From assembly GCA_963663255.1 (NCBI GenBank), contig OY760141.1, forward strand, positions 2,253,103 through 2,317,102: a stretch of DNA of 64,000 nucleotides, given 5' to 3'. The position numbers were made by a program, and so were the translations under genes. Below, piece by piece: positions 11,041 through 19,882 of the stretch. The stretch comes from Acidimicrobiales bacterium. Its GTDB lineage: Bacteria > Actinomycetota > Acidimicrobiia > Acidimicrobiales > Bin134. Every line of letters begins with the position of its first letter. Position 1 is the first letter of the stretch. Below the pieces are notes generated by a model. That model searched no databases. It was not told the origin of the DNA and saw nothing but the letters and a program-made list of their open reading frames with translations.

Positions 11041-11871
11041 TCACTGCATAGCCTGCAAGTCGACACACGCCTTGTACAGGACCCGTTCGAGCTGGAGGTC
11101 TGGTGGAACTCCTTCTCTTCGTCTGTAGTCGGTGAACGAGTCGCCCTCGGGTTCGAAACAGTAGAGGCCGACGGCATCGAGGACTTGCTGTGCAGTTGAG
11201 GCCCATTTGAGGGTTCGTTCGAAATCGCTGTCACTGGTGACCCGTACTGCGATGAAGAAATAGATCTTCGGCTCAACTGTGCGGAGCCAGGTGGTGAGGT
11301 CTCCTCCGCCCGGTCCCCCAGAACGCGGCGCTGTGCCGCTCATGGCCTGGCGCCTGCTGAATTCGCCTTTCAGGTCGATGCATTTGAAGGCAAGCTCTTT
11401 GACCCGCTTGTCGATGTCGGCTGATCCGGGGCGTCCGCTCTTCTTCTGCCTCGGTGAGTTGATGTGCTTGGGTGTGCCCATCATCTTCGCTTCGAGCATG
11501 AACTGGAGGTCCCCTTCTGCGGGATAGACGCAGTCGAGATTGTGTTTGGGCACGATCAGCCCAGGTACAGGTCGACGAGATGTCAAGAGCTGAACGCCAG
11601 AGCACTGCTTGAGGAGCAGAACCAGTAGATCGTTGAAGAAGTCGCCCTTTCCGTTTTGGAGATCAGCACCTAGATCAGACTTCTCGTCGTCCGTCATGTC
11701 TGCACCGACAGAAGCGGCTATGGACGCGTCGAAGTCAGACATTGCGGTCAGAAACGATTCCTCAACCTGATTCCAGCTTGTATACCCCTCTACTTCGGCT
11801 TCGCCATACACGCTGAGAAACGGAGCGCAACGCAGGCTCGTGGCCCATCGGGCATTCGTGGGAGCGGGCAT
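11041..11871 (-). CDS. Type II restriction endonuclease (PD-(D/E)xK-like), partner of the upstream methyltransferase
   Basis: Starts 16 nt downstream of the methyltransferase stop on the same strand. LDCVYPAEGDLQFMLEAKMMG fits D...E-x-K. Confidence 0.6.
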   Translation of the reverse strand: MPAPTNARWATSLRCAPFLSVYGEAEVEGYTSWNQVEESFLTAMSDFDASIAASVGADMTDDEKSDLGADLQNGKGDFFNDLLVLLLKQCSGVQLLTSRRPVPGLIVPKHNLDCVYPAEGDLQFMLEAKMMGTPKHINSPRQKKSGRPGSADIDKRVKELAFKCIDLKGEFSRRQAMSGTAPRSGGPGGGDLTTWLRTVEPKIYFFIAVRVTSDSDFERTLKWASTAQQVLDAVGLYCFEPEGDSFTDYRRREGVPPDLQLERVLYKACVDLQAMQ

Positions 11872-11887
11872 CTATCGATTCTGCCTG

Positions 11888-13609
11888 TCAAATCCGGGAT
11901 GACTGCAAACAACGAGCTGAGAGGACCCCAAGATGGTCTGCGCCTCTGTTCAGGCCATAAGCCTCCACTGCGGCCTCAGTGGCCGCACTTCGATCCCGCT
12001 GCCTGAAAGCGTCCCGCAGGCGTTGCTGCAGCTTCAAACTGATGGAATCAGGTTCGGGCACCCGGACCTTACGTAGGTATTGCGCCTGGAACCGGAAAGT
12101 CCCTCCTCGCATTTTCACGCAATAGGCACCAACGAAGAGGTTTGCGACATCAGATAGAAGAAGCCCGCCCAGCACTTCCAGGTCCCATTTGACGGAGACC
12201 ACGTAGTACAGGTTGTGATGCGGGTAGAACCCGCCAGGGTCCAAGACGGGATGAGAGAGAGCCTTGATATCAGGCAGAAGTAGCTTGGGCCGGTCAATGA
12301 GTTCAGGGTCGACCCGGTCAATCGTCCGGTACCAGGCTCTAGGTTGCTTCTGGGCAACGTGACGAGATCGAAGCTGTTTGCTGTGTTGCGCGAAGTGCCC
12401 TGCTAGTCCCGGATAGCCAGCGAGATCTACAAGCCCATTCTCTCCCCACGGGTTGATCAGGTACTTGCCCGACCAATCAGGACGACCTGTCGCGATATCG
12501 CCTGCGGTCAGGAGCGGGAGCAGGCGATCGGTCTCCACCCCCTCGGCCTCAGCCCGGATATAGACCTGGTCGCATCCAGTGGCAACCCCAATACCAACGC
12601 GGGTCCCCGTCCGAGAATCTTCAAGTGGGGCGAATTGGGATTCGAGATCAGCCAACAATTCAAGCGTCTTCGGAGATCCTGCCGGCCACAGAGCTGGACC
12701 TTCGAACCACCTTGTCAACTCCCCCGCTTCAAAGCCTCGGGAGCTAGACAAGGCATGCTGTGGGTTACGTAGCCAATCGAGCACCAAAGAGGCCTCACGT
12801 TGATCGAAGGCAGCGTTGGCATCCACCACGCGCACAGGACCCTGGACGCCATTACGAAGGATGGCTATGGCCGGGTACGCCGACACCTCTTCTTCGAACG
12901 CGTCGACATCATGCATGACCATGACCGAGTCAACGGAGTACCGGCTCGAAACCAACCTGCGGAGGTGCGCGCCGTATTGATTCCGCATCCACCGATCCGC
13001 GCATATGTAGGCCAACTGCCCTTCAGGACCAAGCAAGGACAAGCCCTTCTCAAAGAACCCGACGTAGATGTCCGCTCGGCCTCGCATGGTTGGCCACATG
13101 GACCTATAGGCATCGTTGACTTCTTTGGGGACGTCTTCAAGACGAACATACGGCGGATTCCCTACAACAAAATCGGCAGGTTGCATGGGCTCTTCACTCA
13201 GCAAGAAATCACTCGTCACGACCCACCGCTGAGCTAAGCGCTCTGCGTTCTCGAGGGTCTCTCCCAAATCGACCAACTTAGCCACCACCGCCTTGCGTGC
13301 GATCTCCGCGTTGTGGTCAAGCAGGTCGAATCCAGCGATGGCGCCCTCTAGCTCGGACAGCCGACGACCATGAGAAGCGCATGACTCCGCAAGCCTCTCG
13401 ACAATTGGAAGAAGAAACGCCCCACAACCGCACGATGGCTCCACGATCACCTTTGCTCCCAAGTCGGCCTCGGGTACATATCCGACAAGGTCAAGCATCA
13501 GGTCAACGACCCACCGCCTAGTAAAAACCTCGCCGTACTCGCCTTGAACGCCAGCTCTGATCCTTGGCTCTTGAGGTTTCACAAGCGGCAATTGCCGGGC
13601 GTCGCTCAC
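11888..13609 (-). CDS. N6-adenine DNA methyltransferase (gamma class, Eco57I/TaqI-like with C-terminal target-recognition domain)
   Basis: SAM motif VEPSCGCGAFL followed by catalytic VGNPPYVR. GTG start at 13609. Confidence 0.9.
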   Translation of the reverse strand: MSDARQLPLVKPQEPRIRAGVQGEYGEVFTRRWVVDLMLDLVGYVPEADLGAKVIVEPSCGCGAFLLPIVERLAESCASHGRRLSELEGAIAGFDLLDHNAEIARKAVVAKLVDLGETLENAERLAQRWVVTSDFLLSEEPMQPADFVVGNPPYVRLEDVPKEVNDAYRSMWPTMRGRADIYVGFFEKGLSLLGPEGQLAYICADRWMRNQYGAHLRRLVSSRYSVDSVMVMHDVDAFEEEVSAYPAIAILRNGVQGPVRVVDANAAFDQREASLVLDWLRNPQHALSSSRGFEAGELTRWFEGPALWPAGSPKTLELLADLESQFAPLEDSRTGTRVGIGVATGCDQVYIRAEAEGVETDRLLPLLTAGDIATGRPDWSGKYLINPWGENGLVDLAGYPGLAGHFAQHSKQLRSRHVAQKQPRAWYRTIDRVDPELIDRPKLLLPDIKALSHPVLDPGGFYPHHNLYYVVSVKWDLEVLGGLLLSDVANLFVGAYCVKMRGGTFRFQAQYLRKVRVPEPDSISLKLQQRLRDAFRQRDRSAATEAAVEAYGLNRGADHLGVLSARCLQSSRI

Positions 13610-13988
13610 CCCGCACCGCCAGAGACGGGCAAATCACATTGGTGGAATCTCATACCTGTACATTAGCTATACACAGTGACAACTATGCGCCGCCCGGTAC
13701 TACCGAAGACAGGGTCTCCAGCCAACATCGAACTGAGTCGTCTCGAGCCGATCCGTGCCTTGTAGCCGCGAAACCAGCGTTCTCGGCCTGCAGCGAAGCG
13801 CTGTACGACTTGGTTTTGGGGAAAAGGTCTCTGCTGTGGTGTCCCGAGGTTGCTGCTCGAAGATCATGCCCAGCCCCTCGTACCGCCTCACCTGGGACTA
13901 CGCAATTGCTATTCCCATCGACCGTCCTCATATCCCCAGTCGTGCTCTACTTGGCAAAGCCTTCCTCTAAGCACTCGACGACATTGTT

Positions 13989-14570
13989 TCAAATTCGCTT
14001 TTGCGGGCTGGCGCTGGTTCCCGCTCTAGCTTGACCACTCGACCTAGACGCCGCAGAACGTGCAATCCTCACCAGGTGGTTCGCAAGTCCTAAGAGTTCC
14101 AGGGCGGTCTCAGGATCGTCCAAGTATCTGTGTTCATGCGCTCTTGGGTTGCGGATCCCTGTAATCACTGCAGCGAACATTTCCATGTACCCGCGCTGTT
14201 GGTCCCTTTCTGATTGGGTTTTCAGGTCGTTTAGCTTCAACACCGGATTCTTTGGCGAGAATGCTCTCTGCATTAGAGGCACACCGTCGAGTTCTGTCAG
14301 GGACGTCAGATCCTTCACAATGTTGTTCAAACACTTGTACGCCTCTCCAACTGCCAATGCGTAGTAGCCATCGAGGAACAATTTCCGACTCGTTTGACGT
14401 AGTTCGTCATCGTCGACAATTTGATCGAAGGTAGGTGGATCAAAATCGCTGGAATGCGTGGTCGGCAGTTGCATGGCAAGACCATCTGCCTTTGCTTGAT
14501 CGGCAATTGCCTTCGCAACCGATAAGCACCAACGGGAATTGTCGCCCGGTAGATCGCTACTCGCCACCAT
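13989..14570 (-). CDS. TIGR02391 / Hypoth_Ymh family protein with Rx4H (HEPN-like) motif
   Basis: FLDGYYALAVGEAYKCLNN...LMQRAF...GYMEMFAAVITGIRNPRAHEH...ALELLGLANHL matches the family pattern as I remember it. Start is uncertain: ATG 14570 overlaps the upstream stop by 14 nt, and ATG 14474 is also possible. Confidence 0.75.
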   Translation of the reverse strand: MVASSDLPGDNSRWCLSVAKAIADQAKADGLAMQLPTTHSSDFDPPTFDQIVDDDELRQTSRKLFLDGYYALAVGEAYKCLNNIVKDLTSLTELDGVPLMQRAFSPKNPVLKLNDLKTQSERDQQRGYMEMFAAVITGIRNPRAHEHRYLDDPETALELLGLANHLVRIARSAASRSSGQARAGTSASPQKRI

Positions 14571-15258
14571 AGAGATGTTCGGCCATGCTCTTGAATATCT
14601 GGTCAATCTGACCAGCAGACGCATCCGACGAAATGTGAACCTGCACGTTGATGTTGAGTGCTGGCTCTACCCTGCCGTTACCTTGCCGAGTTGCTTTCAC
14701 TTCTGATCTGTTGGCCCTTCGAGCAGTCCGGTTTGAGGCTGGCCTTTCGTCTGAACCATTCTTGCTCGTTGTTGTGGTTGGGGCTTTGGTGGCTGCACCC
14801 TCAGGATCGCCGGCAGAGAGAAGGGTGTAGAGCGCTGACATTGCTGTTGCTGTCCCCTGACCCGCTCCAGTATTTCGGCTAAACCAATTCGCTACTCCGC
14901 TTGGATCCTCTGCTGGTGAGGGAAATGCAGACCGCAGCGCATCGGGGTATACCTCTGCAAGTATGTCGGCGCACGCTTGCTTGTAGGACTCGTCGTCCCG
15001 CCAATCGAGTGCACGTTCGGTAGGTGCTCCCTCATCATCGATGAGGCCTAGGGTCCTGAGTGGCCCAATCAGATTTCCAGCCGATGCAGTCGAACTCAAC
15101 CCAAGGACCGACTGCAGGTAGTCGGCATGGACCCTATTTGGCATCGTCTGCTTGAACTTCTCCCGCAGCACCCACCAGTTCTTAGTCGGGAGGCGAGGAA
15201 ATGTTCGCTTGTCCCCTTCATCCGCCATGTCTACCTCCTTGAAAGACTTGACACTCAT
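14557..15258 (-). CDS. DUF5343-like protein (putative winged-helix N-domain, low-complexity linker, short C-domain)
   Basis: FPRLPTKNWW...YLQSVLGLSSTASAGNLIGPLRTLGLIDDEGAPTERAL resembles the DUF5343 pattern from memory. It is followed by a Thr/Ser/Arg-rich linker. Confidence 0.5.
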   Translation of the reverse strand: MSVKSFKEVDMADEGDKRTFPRLPTKNWWVLREKFKQTMPNRVHADYLQSVLGLSSTASAGNLIGPLRTLGLIDDEGAPTERALDWRDDESYKQACADILAEVYPDALRSAFPSPAEDPSGVANWFSRNTGAGQGTATAMSALYTLLSAGDPEGAATKAPTTTTSKNGSDERPASNRTARRANRSEVKATRQGNGRVEPALNINVQVHISSDASAGQIDQIFKSMAEHLYGGE

Positions 15259-15442
15259 CTGTTACGTAGCAGTAGCGGAGGAGAGCATACGGGCACATCT
15301 CGCAAATTTCAATCAAATAATTATGCTCATGTAATTCTGCGCTTGTATCAACCGAGGGATCCGACGCTCCTAACTCCCTGACCTGGGGAAACGAAGAGTG
15401 ATTGGATTGCGCAGCTAGAGGTTCGCAGTAAATGTTCAGCAG

Positions 15443-16825
15443 ATGATCGACGAACACGGTTACCCGCTCGTCGGTCGTGAGGCCAGCAGTCGTAGTGCTC
15501 GGACCCTGTCTGAAACACTATTTCACGTGACTAGGACTTCGTTGGCAGACAGGGCCGAACAAATTCTTCACCGTCACTCAAAGGGGAGGCCTCTGCACTA
15601 CAGACGTCTCACAGAGCTCGGAATCGAAGAAGGGCTTATCGTTGCTCGAGGGTCCACTCCTGAAGCCTCGCTCAATGCCTCTGTCACCCAAGAGATCAAG
15701 AAGCGGGAAGCCTCAGGAGAACCTCAACGCTTCCGCTCCCATGGCAAGGGGTTTTATTCGCTCACCCGGCCCTCAGATCCCCTTGGTGATGCGATCGAAG
15801 CCCACAATAGAGATGTTCGCGATCGCTTGCGCGAGGCGCTGGGAGACATGCACCCTAAGGCGTTTGAGCACCTAGTCGGAGTATTGCTCATTTCCTTGGG
15901 ATTCGAAGATGTCGAGGTGACTAGGTATGTAGGAGATCGTGGCATCGACTTGCGTGCGACGCTGGTGGTCGACGGCATAACCGATGTCCAGACGGCAATC
16001 CAAGCGAAACGTCATACAACTGGGTCCATCGGTGGGCCTGTCGTCCGAGAACTACGTGGAGGTCTAGGACCTCACGATCGAGGACTGATCATCACGCTCT
16101 CCCGTTTCTCCAAAGAGGCCCGCCGTGAAGCATCAGAGCCCGATAGGAGTCCTATCTCATTGGTCGATGGCGAAGGGCTGCTCGAGCTTCTCGTTCAAAA
16201 CCAAATAGGCATAAACGCCACAAGCCGCTCCATCCTTGAATTGGATGAGGGGTTCTTTACCGAGGAGGCAAGCCCGGACAGTGGAGAACTGCCGATGGCT
16301 GCAGCAAGTGGTACCCGCCTGCCTGGTGGGCCTAGTCCTAGCCAGGCGTTATCTCTCTGGCCCCTCCCAGGTGGCGCGAATGCATGGAAGGACTCACTAG
16401 ACCAAATGCTTCGGTACGTGGCCGAAGCAGCACCGACCATGAAGGAGGCAATTGCTTGGCTAATAGGCTCCTTCGAGCGGGTAGCAAGTGCCAATGCCGC
16501 TCGAGGGTACTGGCAAGTGCTACGCAGCTTGGGGCTCATTGAGACGCGAGGCGAACAAGTTGGACTCACCACGGAAGGCTCTGAGTACTTGGAGGATCCG
16601 ACCAGTGACCATTTACTCAGAATCGCAGCGAATCGAATTGTCGGAGTTGAGCAGATGATGCATTGGCTGTCTGAGCGACCTCACACATCTGGAGACCTAC
16701 TTGATCGTGCCCAGGATGAATTAGGGGTCGAGTGGGAGTCACATCAGCAGATCCTGTACCGACTCGGATGGCTGGAAATATTGGGAGCAGCGCAGAAATC
16801 AGGGGACTCCTGGTCTTCGCAGTAG
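15443..16825 (+). CDS. Mrr-type (type IV-like) restriction endonuclease with N-terminal HARE/Mrr_N wHTH and a roughly 190-aa C-terminal extension
   Basis: Mrr_cat core FEHLVGVLLISLGFEDVEVTRYVGDRGIDL...AIQAKRH...VRELRGGL...GLIITLSRFSKEA...SLVDGEGLLELL. N-terminal part is AEQILHRHSKGRPLHYRRL...GKGFYSL. Confidence 0.8.
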   Translation: MIDEHGYPLVGREASSRSARTLSETLFHVTRTSLADRAEQILHRHSKGRPLHYRRLTELGIEEGLIVARGSTPEASLNASVTQEIKKREASGEPQRFRSHGKGFYSLTRPSDPLGDAIEAHNRDVRDRLREALGDMHPKAFEHLVGVLLISLGFEDVEVTRYVGDRGIDLRATLVVDGITDVQTAIQAKRHTTGSIGGPVVRELRGGLGPHDRGLIITLSRFSKEARREASEPDRSPISLVDGEGLLELLVQNQIGINATSRSILELDEGFFTEEASPDSGELPMAAASGTRLPGGPSPSQALSLWPLPGGANAWKDSLDQMLRYVAEAAPTMKEAIAWLIGSFERVASANAARGYWQVLRSLGLIETRGEQVGLTTEGSEYLEDPTSDHLLRIAANRIVGVEQMMHWLSERPHTSGDLLDRAQDELGVEWESHQQILYRLGWLEILGAAQKSGDSWSSQ

Positions 16826-17120: not shown

Positions 17121-18050
17121 TCACCCCAGCCGCCCCAACTGCCGCCTGAGCCAATCTTCTCGGTGGGCGGCGTAGCGTTGGGCGATTTGGGTTTGGGGGA
17201 AGAGGCCTACGCCGTGGGGGGCGCCGGGGTAGACGTGGAGTTCGGTGGGGATGCCGGCGCCGTAGAGGCGTTTGGCGTAGATGATGTCCTCGTCGCGGAA
17301 TCCGTCGGCACCGCCGACGCAGACGTAGGCCTCGGGCAGGCCGGACAGGTCCTCGGCCCGGGCGGCAGCCGCGGTATAAGGGACGTCGTCGGCGCCGTAG
17401 AGGTCGCCGAGATAGCACTGCCAACCAAAGGCATTGGTCTTCTTGGTCCAGATCACCAGGTTTTCGAGTTGGCTTGATGGGGTGATTTGGCGGTCGTCGA
17501 TCATCGGGCAGTCCAAGAGCTGGAACTGCAACGGCACCTCGCCCCGATCCCGAGCCAGCAACGCCAACGCGGCGCACAGCCCGCCCCCGGCGCTGACCCC
17601 GGTGATGCCGATTTTGTCGGGGTCGATGCCGATCTCCGCCGCGTTGTCATGGGTCCACTTCAAACCGGCGTAGCAGTCCTCCAAGGGTCCCGGATAGGGC
17701 GTCTCCGGTGCCAGGCGGTACTCCACCGACACCCCGACAACGCCATAGGCCGGACACCACCGGTCGAACTTGGCGTCGTCCATGTCGTAGGTGCCCCGGA
17801 TGTAACCCCCGCCATGGATTGAGTACACACATGGCACGGCACCCTCCAGCCCCACCGGGCGGTGCACTCGCACCGCCACTCCGGTGGCCTCATCCACCAC
17901 ATGGTCCGACCGCTCCACCGCATCGCTCAGCTCCGGAAACTGGACCGGCAGACTGGCCCGAATTTCAGCCAAGAAGTCAGCGCTGAGATCCCGGGTCGGC
18001 ACCAGATGCTTAACCCGCTCAATCTCCGGATCTAACCGAACCGTGTCCAT
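17121..18050 (-). CDS. Alpha/beta hydrolase (HSL/Aes-type esterase-lipase), copy A
   Basis: HGGGY oxyanion motif, GVSAGGG nucleophile elbow, 309 aa. Confidence 0.85.
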   Translation of the reverse strand: MDTVRLDPEIERVKHLVPTRDLSADFLAEIRASLPVQFPELSDAVERSDHVVDEATGVAVRVHRPVGLEGAVPCVYSIHGGGYIRGTYDMDDAKFDRWCPAYGVVGVSVEYRLAPETPYPGPLEDCYAGLKWTHDNAAEIGIDPDKIGITGVSAGGGLCAALALLARDRGEVPLQFQLLDCPMIDDRQITPSSQLENLVIWTKKTNAFGWQCYLGDLYGADDVPYTAAAARAEDLSGLPEAYVCVGGADGFRDEDIIYAKRLYGAGIPTELHVYPGAPHGVGLFPQTQIAQRYAAHREDWLRRQLGRLG

Positions 18051-18128: not shown

Positions 18129-18485
18129 CTAGCGGCTTGAGACCGGCAGGTCAAGGGCCAGGCCCATGCCTGCTTCAATCAACCGCATGGTGGCGGTGTC
18201 TACCCTGCCGACCCAATCAGACAGTCGGGCCTTGTCGATCGTCACGATCTGGGAGACATTGGCTACCGAGTCGCGGTCCAAGCCACTGGTCTCCGATGGC
18301 AGCTCAACGTTGCCGGGCGCATCGGCAAGGCGGAGGTTCGAGGTAATGGCCACCGCCAGCACAGTGTCGATTCTGCTCTGGTTGAATCGGTCGCTGGACA
18401 CAACGAGCACCGGACGGCGGCGGCCTGGCTCTGATCCCGTTGGCTGACGGAGATCCACCCAGTAGATCTCACCCCGGTGAATCAC
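18129..18485 (-). CDS. mazF: MazF/PemK family endoribonuclease toxin
   Basis: RGEIYWVDLRQPTGSEPGRRRPVLVVSSD...VAITSN...VNVSQIVTIDKARL is a classic PemK signature. The GTG start overlaps the antitoxin stop (GTGA). Confidence 0.9.
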   Translation of the reverse strand: MIHRGEIYWVDLRQPTGSEPGRRRPVLVVSSDRFNQSRIDTVLAVAITSNLRLADAPGNVELPSETSGLDRDSVANVSQIVTIDKARLSDWVGRVDTATMRLIEAGMGLALDLPVSSR

Positions 18486-18715
18486 CAGGGATCTGACAGC
18501 GCGTCGTCCTGCGCTTCCTTCAGCGTTTCATCAAGACCCGAGGACACCTCCGCATACACAGCATCGAGGCGAGCGGTGACCTCATCGCCGTCTGCTTCGG
18601 CCAGTAGCCGCTCTAGTGCCTGCGCATACAAGTTCGAACGGGAACACCGGCGGCGGGCCGCCAACTCCTCGGCGGCTTCGAACACCGCATCGGGGATAGA
18701 CACCGCAACCTTCAC
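18482..18715 (-). CDS. Type II antitoxin (ribbon-helix-helix / MazE-like)
   Basis: 77 aa with an N-terminal beta-strand (KVAVSIPDAVFEAAEELA) and an acidic C-terminus. Start-stop coupled to mazF. Confidence 0.75.
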   Translation of the reverse strand: MKVAVSIPDAVFEAAEELAARRRCSRSNLYAQALERLLAEADGDEVTARLDAVYAEVSSGLDETLKEAQDDALSDPW

Positions 18716-18770: not shown

Positions 18771-19700
18771 TCAGCCGATGCGTTCCAGTTGGCGGCGGAG
18801 CCAATCCTCTTGGTCGGCGGAGTACCGCTGGGCCACTTCGAGGTGGGCGAAGAGGGCGACACCGTGGGGGGCGCCGGGGTAGACGTGGAGCTCGGTGGGG
18901 ACACCGGCGCCGTAGAGGCGCATGGCGTAGTCGATGTCCTCGTCGCGGAATCCGTCGGCACCGCCGACGCAGACGTAGGCCTCGGGCAGGCCGGACAAGT
19001 CCTCGGCTCGGGCGGGCGCCGCGGTGTACGGCACATCGTCAGCGCCGTAGAGATCGCCGAGGTAGCACTGCCAGCCGAAAGTGTTCGAGTTCTTGTGCCA
19101 TATCAACAGGTCGTCGAGCTGGCTTGACGGGGTGATCTGGCGATCGTCGACCATCGGGCAGTCCAAGAGCTGGAACTGCAATGGCACCTCACCCCGATCA
19201 CGAGCCAACAGCGCGAGCGCCGCGCACAGCCCACCCCCAGCGCTGACCCCGGTGATGCCGATCTTGTCGCGGTCTATGCCGATCTCTTCGGCATTTTCGT
19301 ACGTCCACTTCAATCCGGCGTAACAGTCCTCCAGCGGACCTGGATACGCCGTCTCGGGCGACAAGCGGTACTCCACCGACACCCCGACGATGCCGTACTC
19401 CTGACACCACCGGTCGAACTTGGCGTCATCCATCTCGTAGCTGCCCAGGATGTAGCCCCCGCCGTGGATGGAGTACACACACGGAACCGCACCCTCTTGG
19501 CCCACCGCTCGGTGCACCCGCACCACCACGCCGTTGGCCTCATCCACCACATGGTCGGTGCGCTCGACCGCATCGCTGAGTTCGGGAAGCTCCCCTAGAC
19601 GTGATTCCCGCAGCTCAGGCAACACCTCGGCATTGACCTCACCGATGGGAACCATGTCCTTGAGTGGCTCGATTTCCTCGTGCAGTGCAACCGTCGCCAT
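18771..19700 (-). CDS. Alpha/beta hydrolase (HSL/Aes-type esterase-lipase), copy B
   Basis: Same motifs as copy A. Trimmed to ATG 19700, preceded by agagggag RBS, which gives 309 aa like copy A. Confidence 0.85.
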   Translation of the reverse strand: MATVALHEEIEPLKDMVPIGEVNAEVLPELRESRLGELPELSDAVERTDHVVDEANGVVVRVHRAVGQEGAVPCVYSIHGGGYILGSYEMDDAKFDRWCQEYGIVGVSVEYRLSPETAYPGPLEDCYAGLKWTYENAEEIGIDRDKIGITGVSAGGGLCAALALLARDRGEVPLQFQLLDCPMVDDRQITPSSQLDDLLIWHKNSNTFGWQCYLGDLYGADDVPYTAAPARAEDLSGLPEAYVCVGGADGFRDEDIDYAMRLYGAGVPTELHVYPGAPHGVALFAHLEVAQRYSADQEDWLRRQLERIG

Positions 19701-19882
19701 GTCAGCTCCCTCTCTTTGCTTGTCGGCTACCCGACCGGTACGAACGAGCACGAATACTAGACACTGCGGCCAACCGCTTGTCATGGATGGTCCATCGGCA
19801 CCCAGTTCGCTGGCGTGGGTACCCGATGCCCTTGCTGAGTAACCTGCCGGGCGATGCCCTGCGCCAATAGCCTGAGCCCGCG

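Follow-up and report, generated by a model that had tools for sequence, protein, structure and literature searches.

The window analysed here is a stretch of 64,000 nucleotides (nt) from an Acidimicrobiales bacterium (contig OY760141.1 of assembly GCA_963663255.1, positions 2,253,103 to 2,317,102), which carries on its minus strand two small overlapping genes, referred to below as A and B. Gene A (14557..15228, 223 amino acids (aa)) is made up of an N-terminal DUF5343 domain, a disordered linker and a conserved C-terminal tail, and from these features it is predicted to encode the regulatory partner of a HEPN protein. The latter is the product of gene B (13989..14570, 193 aa), a predicted RNase effector consisting of an N-terminal helix and a Ymh-family HEPN domain. 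The stop codon of A (TAG, 14557-14559) and the start codon of B (ATG, 14570-14568) overlap by 14 nt (ATGGTGGCGAGTAG, 14557..14570), an arrangement indicative of tight translational coupling that had been noted in a first, sequence-only reading of this stretch; it can be read directly from the letters, and the spacing is conserved across A-B pairs. It is already known that Ymh is a HEPN RNase family (Anantharaman et al., 2013), and the family of A is present in PADLOC as PDC-M34A. What is new in the present work is the near-obligate pairing of A with B, the tail as the constant part of A behind varied N-terminal domains (N-domains), and the existence of two alternative HEPN partner families.

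The pairing was assessed in both directions. A scan with an alignment of A against one genome per GTDB species identified 334 loci among 185,579 species representatives, a patchy distribution across phyla, and 80 of these loci were fetched for analysis of their pairing and neighbours. The loci come from more than 10 phyla and span the Acidimicrobiia, Chloroflexota, Bacillota, Acidobacteriota, Pseudomonadota, Planctomycetota, Gemmatimonadota, Bacteroidota and others. A HEPN gene of ~170 aa is located directly downstream of A, on the same strand, in 79 of the 80 loci; in the 80th, the contig ends ~400 nt past A and the partner was missed by the list of complete open reading frames (ORFs) of at least 50 aa, and a stop-to-stop scan shows a DUF4145-like partner there. 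In the reverse direction, 80 metagenomic loci were selected via B, of which 78 were assessable, and a tail-bearing gene was found directly upstream of the Ymh gene B in 74 of them, the exceptions being a B truncated at its 5' end and a single sequence that was encountered three times. The distance from the A stop to the B start, computed over 156 A-B pairs, lies between -14 and +24 nt in 155 of them and is exactly -14 in 18. The A-B pairing is near-obligate in both directions, non-random and, like the domain matches of the two genes, far beyond chance. The co-occurrence of the two families that the sequence-only reading had anticipated is therefore borne out, but the element of A that is paired with the HEPN gene is the tail and not DUF5343 itself.

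The tail comprises A residues 190-223 (14560..14661, minus strand), in which a strand-like segment, LNINVQVHIS, is followed by a helix, AGQIDQIFKSMAEHLY, that is placed at residues 205-220 in the AlphaFold2 (AF2) model. Its consensus, ~33 aa in length and located at the extreme C-terminus after the linker, is PxxHIDxQIHIS..A..EQIDQIFASMAKHLY, and four residues (viz. H198, F212, M215, and Y220) are invariant in the alignment of A1 homologues. Conservation and distance statistics for the tail and for the N-terminal helix of B were obtained from 143 distinct A-B pairs, across which the core of the tail shows an entropy of ~1.1 bits and a mean pairwise identity of 52%, even between phyla. Synonymous codons vary freely at the invariant tail residues, and therefore it is the protein that is under selection rather than an RNA or ribosome-binding signal. 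A search of 1.84e9 cluster representatives with a tail-only profile (E <= 1e-3) matched 983 clusters, and the tail forms the extreme C-terminus in 150 of 150 among the matches listed. The domains that precede it are diverse: for the tail-bearing proteins of at least 160 aa (n=76), DUF5343 is present in 44, AAA_assoc_C in 1 and HTH_24 in 1, and 30 have no Pfam domain. At 36 or more of the metagenomic loci, DUF5343 is missing from the upstream protein, which nevertheless ends in the same tail, and 4 more N-domain clusters, none of them above the Pfam threshold, also carry it. In all, the tail is found behind at least 5 different N-domains, which are mostly similar to the winged helix-turn-helix (wHTH). 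As judged from these sequences, the constant element of A is its C-terminal tail and not its DUF5343 domain. The "short C-terminal segment" that had been described for A is thus present, but it corresponds to this conserved tail, which is the element that truly accompanies the HEPN gene.

The tail profile search also returned "tail-only" mini-proteins of 30-74 aa, which were considered as possible minimal antitoxins and rejected, since the two that were checked on long contigs are full DUF5343 genes frameshifted in the linker; among those examined, one is without an N-domain. Splitting of gene A by a frameshift within the linker was observed at loci L166 (2920-3159) and L167 (2785-3195), and also at L034 and L057, and it leads gene callers to annotate a "tail-only" protein of 50-70 aa. 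These frameshifts could be due to sequencing error in homopolymer-rich linkers, to decay or to a regulated event.

Profile searches, evaluated against the curated Pfam and TIGRFAM cut-offs, agree with the identity proposed for B on sequence grounds, as B matches both Hypoth_Ymh (PF09509; E 1e-30, 106.5 bits against a cut-off of 25) and TIGR02391 (E 7e-22, 77.8 bits against a cut-off of 39.45). The Pfam match places the Hypoth_Ymh (HEPN) domain at B residues 55-168 (14067..14408, minus strand), and within it the sequence RNPRAH (R140-H145; 14136..14153, minus strand), which had been proposed as the Rx4H catalytic signature of HEPN proteins, is invariant at all six residues in an alignment of 28 homologues that are 43-81% identical. 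Among the PADLOC models, B matches PD-Lambda-3_B in its C-terminal domain (profile positions 147-252 of 270, E 4.9e-14) and Aga_HEPN, which represents pAgo-associated HEPN proteins (E 2.7e-12). Homologues of B of 175-190 aa align from the ATG at 14570, whereas the automatic database call for this gene (P0085, 161 aa) begins 32 codons late and loses the conserved N-terminal helix. The AF2 model of B (pLDDT 84) is all-helical, with a helix at aa 9-28 that is joined by a low-confidence connector to the Ymh domain. Its top Foldseek matches in the PDB are the HEPN proteins 2hsb (probability 0.91, TM 0.59), 2q00 and 1wol at non-significant E-values of 1.0-1.7, with HepT chains lower in the ranking (E 3-5); a PDB sequence search with B gave no match, and a search of a viral fold library gave nothing significant. 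The N-terminal helix (residues 9-28, ..LSVAKAIADQAKADG..; 14487..14546, minus strand; AF2 pLDDT 82-85) is amphipathic and is a candidate docking site for the tail of A. Two long Ymh proteins (P0179 and P0191) that were considered as possible A-B fusions are not fusions.

Two families of HEPN partners are found downstream of A in the genome loci, 30 of the partners being Ymh and ~48 being DUF4145-like. The latter have borderline DUF4145 scores of 19-25 bits and carry the motif GDQSAHSRRY. An iterative hidden Markov model (HMM) search with B had gone from 33 to 79 matches, an increase that reflects profile drift via over-extended ORFs, and the groups were then checked separately; the extra partners were rejected as Ymh proteins and kept, as DUF4145-like proteins, as a second HEPN partner family. 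The Ymh- and DUF4145-type partners align with each other only at the N-terminal helix (hhalign P 0.0044 at full length); with the N-termini alone the alignment has a P value of 7.5e-6 and a probability of 84%, and this region is also the top one in a second comparison. The constants of the system are the tail of A and the N-terminal helix of B, and therefore the docking of the tail on the helix would be the economical interpretation. Two DUF4145-type pairs with identical match statistics (L073 and L074) lie ~280 kb apart on the Longimicrobiales contig CAUVXA020000004.1, which suggests a duplicated or mobile carrier element.

The DUF5343-like region proposed for the N-terminal part of A is confirmed by a Pfam match of ORF 14557-15258 (minus strand) to PF17278 (E 7.9e-14, 52.6 bits against a cut-off of 27, aa 37-153), and the gene includes the peptide LIGPLRTLGLIDDEGAPTERAL. 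The frame and the stop codon of this ORF stand as originally assigned, but its start at 15258 does not: gene A almost certainly starts at the ATG at 15228, 30 nt inside the ORF, because this codon is preceded by the Shine-Dalgarno sequence AAGGAGGT and because all homologues begin with MADxxxK. The Shine-Dalgarno sequence is perfect (15233..15240, minus strand; 4 nt upstream of the ATG), and it is kept as AAGGAGG in L001, L002 and L041 and as GAGGAGG in L003. The full-length homologues of A number 84. DUF5343 is the sole domain matched in A by the Pfam and TIGRFAM profiles, and no nucleotidyltransferase domain is present; the PADLOC model PDC-M34A (PDLC04589) matches A over profile positions 25-207 of 208, tail included (E 1.1e-16). 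The helical N-domain (residues 15-148; 14785..15186, minus strand) is modelled by AF2 at a pLDDT of 93-97, and its top Foldseek matches in the PDB are wHTH regulators (viz. NsrR, SlyA/MarR, RovA, LexA, Rex, and MotA) with non-significant E-values of 0.5-3, so that the model is only suggestive of a winged-helix-like fold. The linker of ~40 aa (residues 149-189; 14662..14784, minus strand; AF2 pLDDT 32-42) is disordered, of low complexity and rich in Thr, Ser, Arg and Lys; it varies in length and cannot be aligned among homologues. PDB sequence searches with A and with its tail gave noise only, and no mention of DUF5343 was found in the literature searched.

The two genes are predicted, from the conservation of their upstream region, to be co-transcribed from a conserved promoter. 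A consensus scan identified a promoter-like site for the A-B operon (-35 TTGAAA, 17-nt spacer, -10 TATGCT; 15284..15312, minus strand) that is located ~55 nt upstream of A, and the scan by itself is not above chance. In 8 related loci, the A proteins of which are 55-86% identical, the pattern TTG..17-18 nt..TAnnnT is conserved together with an upstream GAATTACA-N7-AATTA block. The palindrome CTGCTACGTAACAG (15259-15272), located between the -10 element and the Shine-Dalgarno sequence, was considered as an operator and is not conserved in relatives.

The placement of the pair in a defence island, divergent from an Mrr nuclease, is supported by the annotation of its surroundings. On the plus strand, a divergent gene (15443..16825) encodes an Mrr-type (type IV-like) restriction endonuclease (REase) with a HARE-HTH domain (Mrr_cat E 7.7e-24, HARE-HTH E 3.3e-8), which matches PDC-S02 and mREase_IV in PADLOC; among the related Acidimicrobiia compared, it is conserved beside the A-B pair only in L001. 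Downstream, in the same orientation as A-B, are a type II methyltransferase (MTase; 11888-13609, minus strand; PADLOC MTase_II E 1e-191) and a type II REase (11041-11871, minus strand; PADLOC REase_II E 2.4e-11). The Mrr gene, the A-B pair and these type II restriction-modification (R-M) genes are all held in a GC-poor stretch at ~8-17 kb, with a GC content of 0.54-0.58 against 0.63-0.68 elsewhere. The order A-B-MTase-REase is syntenic in four Acidimicrobiia (L001, L002, L041 and L005), where tblastn identities are 65-84% for the MTase and 64-90% for the REase, and in a fifth related genome (L003) the MTase is upstream of A-B. The 380 bp between B and the MTase (13610-13988) contain a few short imperfect inverted repeats, no convincing gene and no terminator-like site; an Rfam scan of 10.5-19 kb of the window gave no match, and no tRNA genes are present within window positions 1-30000.

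The immediate neighbours in the 80 genome loci are mixed, with R-M methyltransferases, REases, SNF2/NOV_C proteins and DUF1156 components recurring and housekeeping genes also present, which fits a self-contained mobile cassette that frequently lands in defence islands. The set of neighbours identified by Pfam and PADLOC includes 5 SNF2/Helicase_C/NOV_C proteins and 3 DUF1156 methylases. At L009, L010, L020, L030 and L063, which include members of the Bacillota, Chloroflexota and Gemmatimonadota, the pair is wedged between very large genes of ~1,100-1,200 aa, a setting that corresponds to the R-M-like system of the DUF1156/DUF499/DUF3883 type, for which HEPN genes were already noted in 2013 (PMC3710099). 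In a metagenome-assembled genome related to the lineage of the window (L168/L169), a second Hypoth_Ymh gene (251 aa; 1569-2324, minus) lies on the opposite strand beside a tail and Ymh pair, with the HsdR gene of a type I R-M system and an HTH_3-Fic pair close by, in a dense cluster of conflict genes. Within the window, the C-terminal third of the Mrr protein (16310-16825, plus strand) contains a segment, ..YWQVLRSLGLIETRGEQ.., that resembles the LRTLGLIDDEG wing of DUF5343, and it has a weak AAA_assoc_C match (E 0.075). The wHTH families of the Mrr C-terminus, DUF5343 and AAA_assoc_C may be related; a similarity of the Mrr C-terminal region to DUF5343 or to the A family is not claimed, the hhalign result being weak (P 0.005, probability 7%). 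A further overlapping pair of small genes (18129-18715, minus strand) consists of a 118-aa ORF starting MIHRGEIYWVDL and an upstream ORF of 77 aa, and lies between paralogous esterase-like genes of ~310-340 aa (17121-18050 and 18771-19784). The 118-aa ORF looks PemK/MazF-like, and the pair is probably a second toxin-antitoxin (TA) module at the edge of the island.

Comparison with described systems indicates both likenesses and differences. B is a member of the Ymh family (PF09509) by its profile score and its motif, and the family has been listed among the HEPN families as having a conserved Rx4-6H motif and as occurring as "solos" in R-M operons, a setting like the one seen here (Anantharaman et al., 2013; PMC3710099); however, that account lists no separate DUF5343- or tail-bearing partner gene and no short N-terminal helix. 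PD-lambda-3 is a two-gene, experimentally validated abortive-infection (Abi) system (Vassallo et al., 2022), which is used as an Abi control in PMC13190303. The C-terminal domain of its B protein matches B of the window, but that protein is longer and has another N-terminal half, its partner is reported to be PD-(D/E)XK nuclease-like and not DUF5343, and the PADLOC model PD-Lambda-3_A gave no match to A. The component A model of the PADLOC candidate PDC-M34 matches A of the window and, at 8e-43, the distant homologue L164, and the model PDC-M34B gave no match for B of the window, for the DUF4145-type partners or for the genes flanking L164, even at E up to 10. The composition of PDC-M34, which is a computational candidate and of which no mention was found in the literature searched, could not be reconciled with the A-B pair. 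The type II HEPN TA systems (viz. HepT-MntA or HEPN-MNT, RnlA-RnlB, and LsoA-LsoB) resemble the arrangement proposed here in being small two-gene operons in which a HEPN RNase toxin is restrained by a cognate protein. MntA AMPylates HepT, whereas the partner of B is neither a nucleotidyltransferase nor RnlB/LsoB-like, and the gene order and the wHTH-linker-tail architecture also differ. In the single-chain HEPN proteins AbiJ and RAZR, an exchangeable N-terminal domain likewise governs a HEPN RNase, which in RAZR is a DUF4145 HEPN; however, the regulator and the HEPN domain are here separate polypeptides that would be linked by the tail and the N-terminal helix and not by covalent fusion.

We estimate a probability of about 0.5 that A and B constitute a two-gene cassette of the TA or Abi type, self-contained and able to spread horizontally, in which A restrains a latent HEPN RNase, B, via its tail. 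In such a cassette, B would be the latent RNase of the Ymh family, with RNPRAH as its catalytic motif, and A would be its controller, with a wHTH-like N-domain, a linker and a strand-helix tail. The tail would physically hold and restrain B, most economically by docking on its short N-terminal helix, and the N-domain would bind DNA, serving autoregulation and/or the recognition of an invader. Upon loss, degradation or displacement of A, whether by phage shut-off or by a phage trigger, B dimers would cleave RNA and growth would stop. The A-B binding, the inhibition, the RNase activity and the trigger are steps that we infer. In the canonical layout of type II antitoxins, a DNA-binding N-domain is combined with a flexible C-terminal toxin-binding part, and the antitoxin gene is upstream of an overlapping toxin gene; the predicted A-B architecture, with a wHTH-like and putatively DNA-binding N-domain, matches this layout, which supports a reading of the TA type. 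The pair likewise has the attributes of a TA pair in that it consists of two small co-directional genes, closely spaced or overlapping, that are kept together. Further support for a TA or Abi function comes from PD-lambda-3, an abortive-infection system and, of the systems studied by experiment, the one with the most closely related effector domain.

A number of observations weigh against this interpretation. Classical antitoxins do not usually have a low-complexity linker of such length, and the promoter region of related A-B loci has no conserved palindromic operator. The tail shows no difference between pairs with Ymh and with DUF4145-type partners, and it is far more conserved than the proposed docking helix (52% against 20% pairwise identity), so that its main target may differ from the helix and may be the tail itself through self-association, the catalytic cleft of the HEPN domain or a host factor that is conserved. 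The Foldseek E-values are non-significant for the models of both A (0.5-3) and B (~1). With regard to mobility, tblastn of A found nothing in the plasmid and phage collections searched, and the pair is present on just 3 IMG/VR contigs, all of the DUF4145 type; it is from the patchy distribution only that we infer it. A broader proposal, which we put forward tentatively, is that the tail is a portable "leash" that couples in trans a range of exchangeable domains of the wHTH type, for sensing or DNA binding, to HEPN proteins of either of two unrelated families via the N-terminal helix, possibly as a split strand-helix/helix mini-domain. The pairs would then represent a hitherto undescribed class of modular HEPN systems, split over two polypeptides and serving immunity or TA functions, that comprises ~1,000 protein clusters, and the extreme conservation of the tail would reflect an additional conserved target, e.g., self-assembly or a host factor.

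The same architecture could also serve activation in place of restraint. The N-domain of A would in that case recognize invader DNA or protein, and clustered A would bring the tethered B into active dimers or oligomers, by a logic similar to that of RAZR, a DUF4145 HEPN protein that becomes active when it assembles on rings of phage protein (PMC13017515). The exchange of the N-domain while the tail and the HEPN partner remain constant is as expected for diversifying sensors, the long flexible linker suits tethering, and HEPN enzymes need dimerization; however, two small genes of which the upstream one overlaps the next are what is typically seen for an antitoxin and its toxin, and the conserved promoter region also fits autoregulation, and we regard activation by A as rather unlikely. 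The presence of R-M genes at many of these loci raises the question of whether B acts as a back-up to restriction in the manner of PrrC or RloC, being held latent by, or monitoring, the adjacent R-M enzymes and firing once a phage disables restriction. Such a role would account for the A-B-MTase-REase synteny in the related Acidimicrobiia and for the MTases, REases and DUF1156/SNF2-NOV_C genes that are frequent immediate neighbours in other phyla, and the Ymh "solos" reported in R-M operons have been compared with PrrC (PMC3710099). It is nevertheless improbable in our view, as an R-M gene directly adjoins the pair in only a minority of the 80 loci and many of them have housekeeping genes there, as what invariably accompanies B is A and not an R-M subunit, and as B and the MTase of the window are 380 bp apart.

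A role outside genetic conflict, with A as an ordinary transcription factor, B as an RNA-processing or regulatory RNase of normal physiology and the island location as incidental, would agree with the wHTH-like character of A, with the many housekeeping neighbours and with the housekeeping roles of some HEPN proteins (PMC3710099). This role is highly improbable given the patchy distribution of the pair, its GC-poor island and R-M-rich surroundings, its presence on some viral contigs, the duplicated copies in one genome (L073/L074) and the frameshifted copies, which are hallmarks of selfish or defence cassettes and not of core regulators.

HEPN RNases are common effectors of TA, Abi and CRISPR-accessory systems, and the means by which they are silenced and triggered are usually unexplained. 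The A-B pair opens no new category of biology; it is a compact system, its two proteins adding up to ~420 aa, in which regulation apparently depends on an interface of no more than a 33-residue tail and a 20-residue helix. Around this tail-helix interface, the sensor domain as well as the HEPN family have been swapped in nature. If the proposed mechanism is correct, it would provide a function for DUF5343 and for a large subfamily of Ymh proteins and would account for a PADLOC candidate, and the pair would represent a minimal, engineerable RNase switch.

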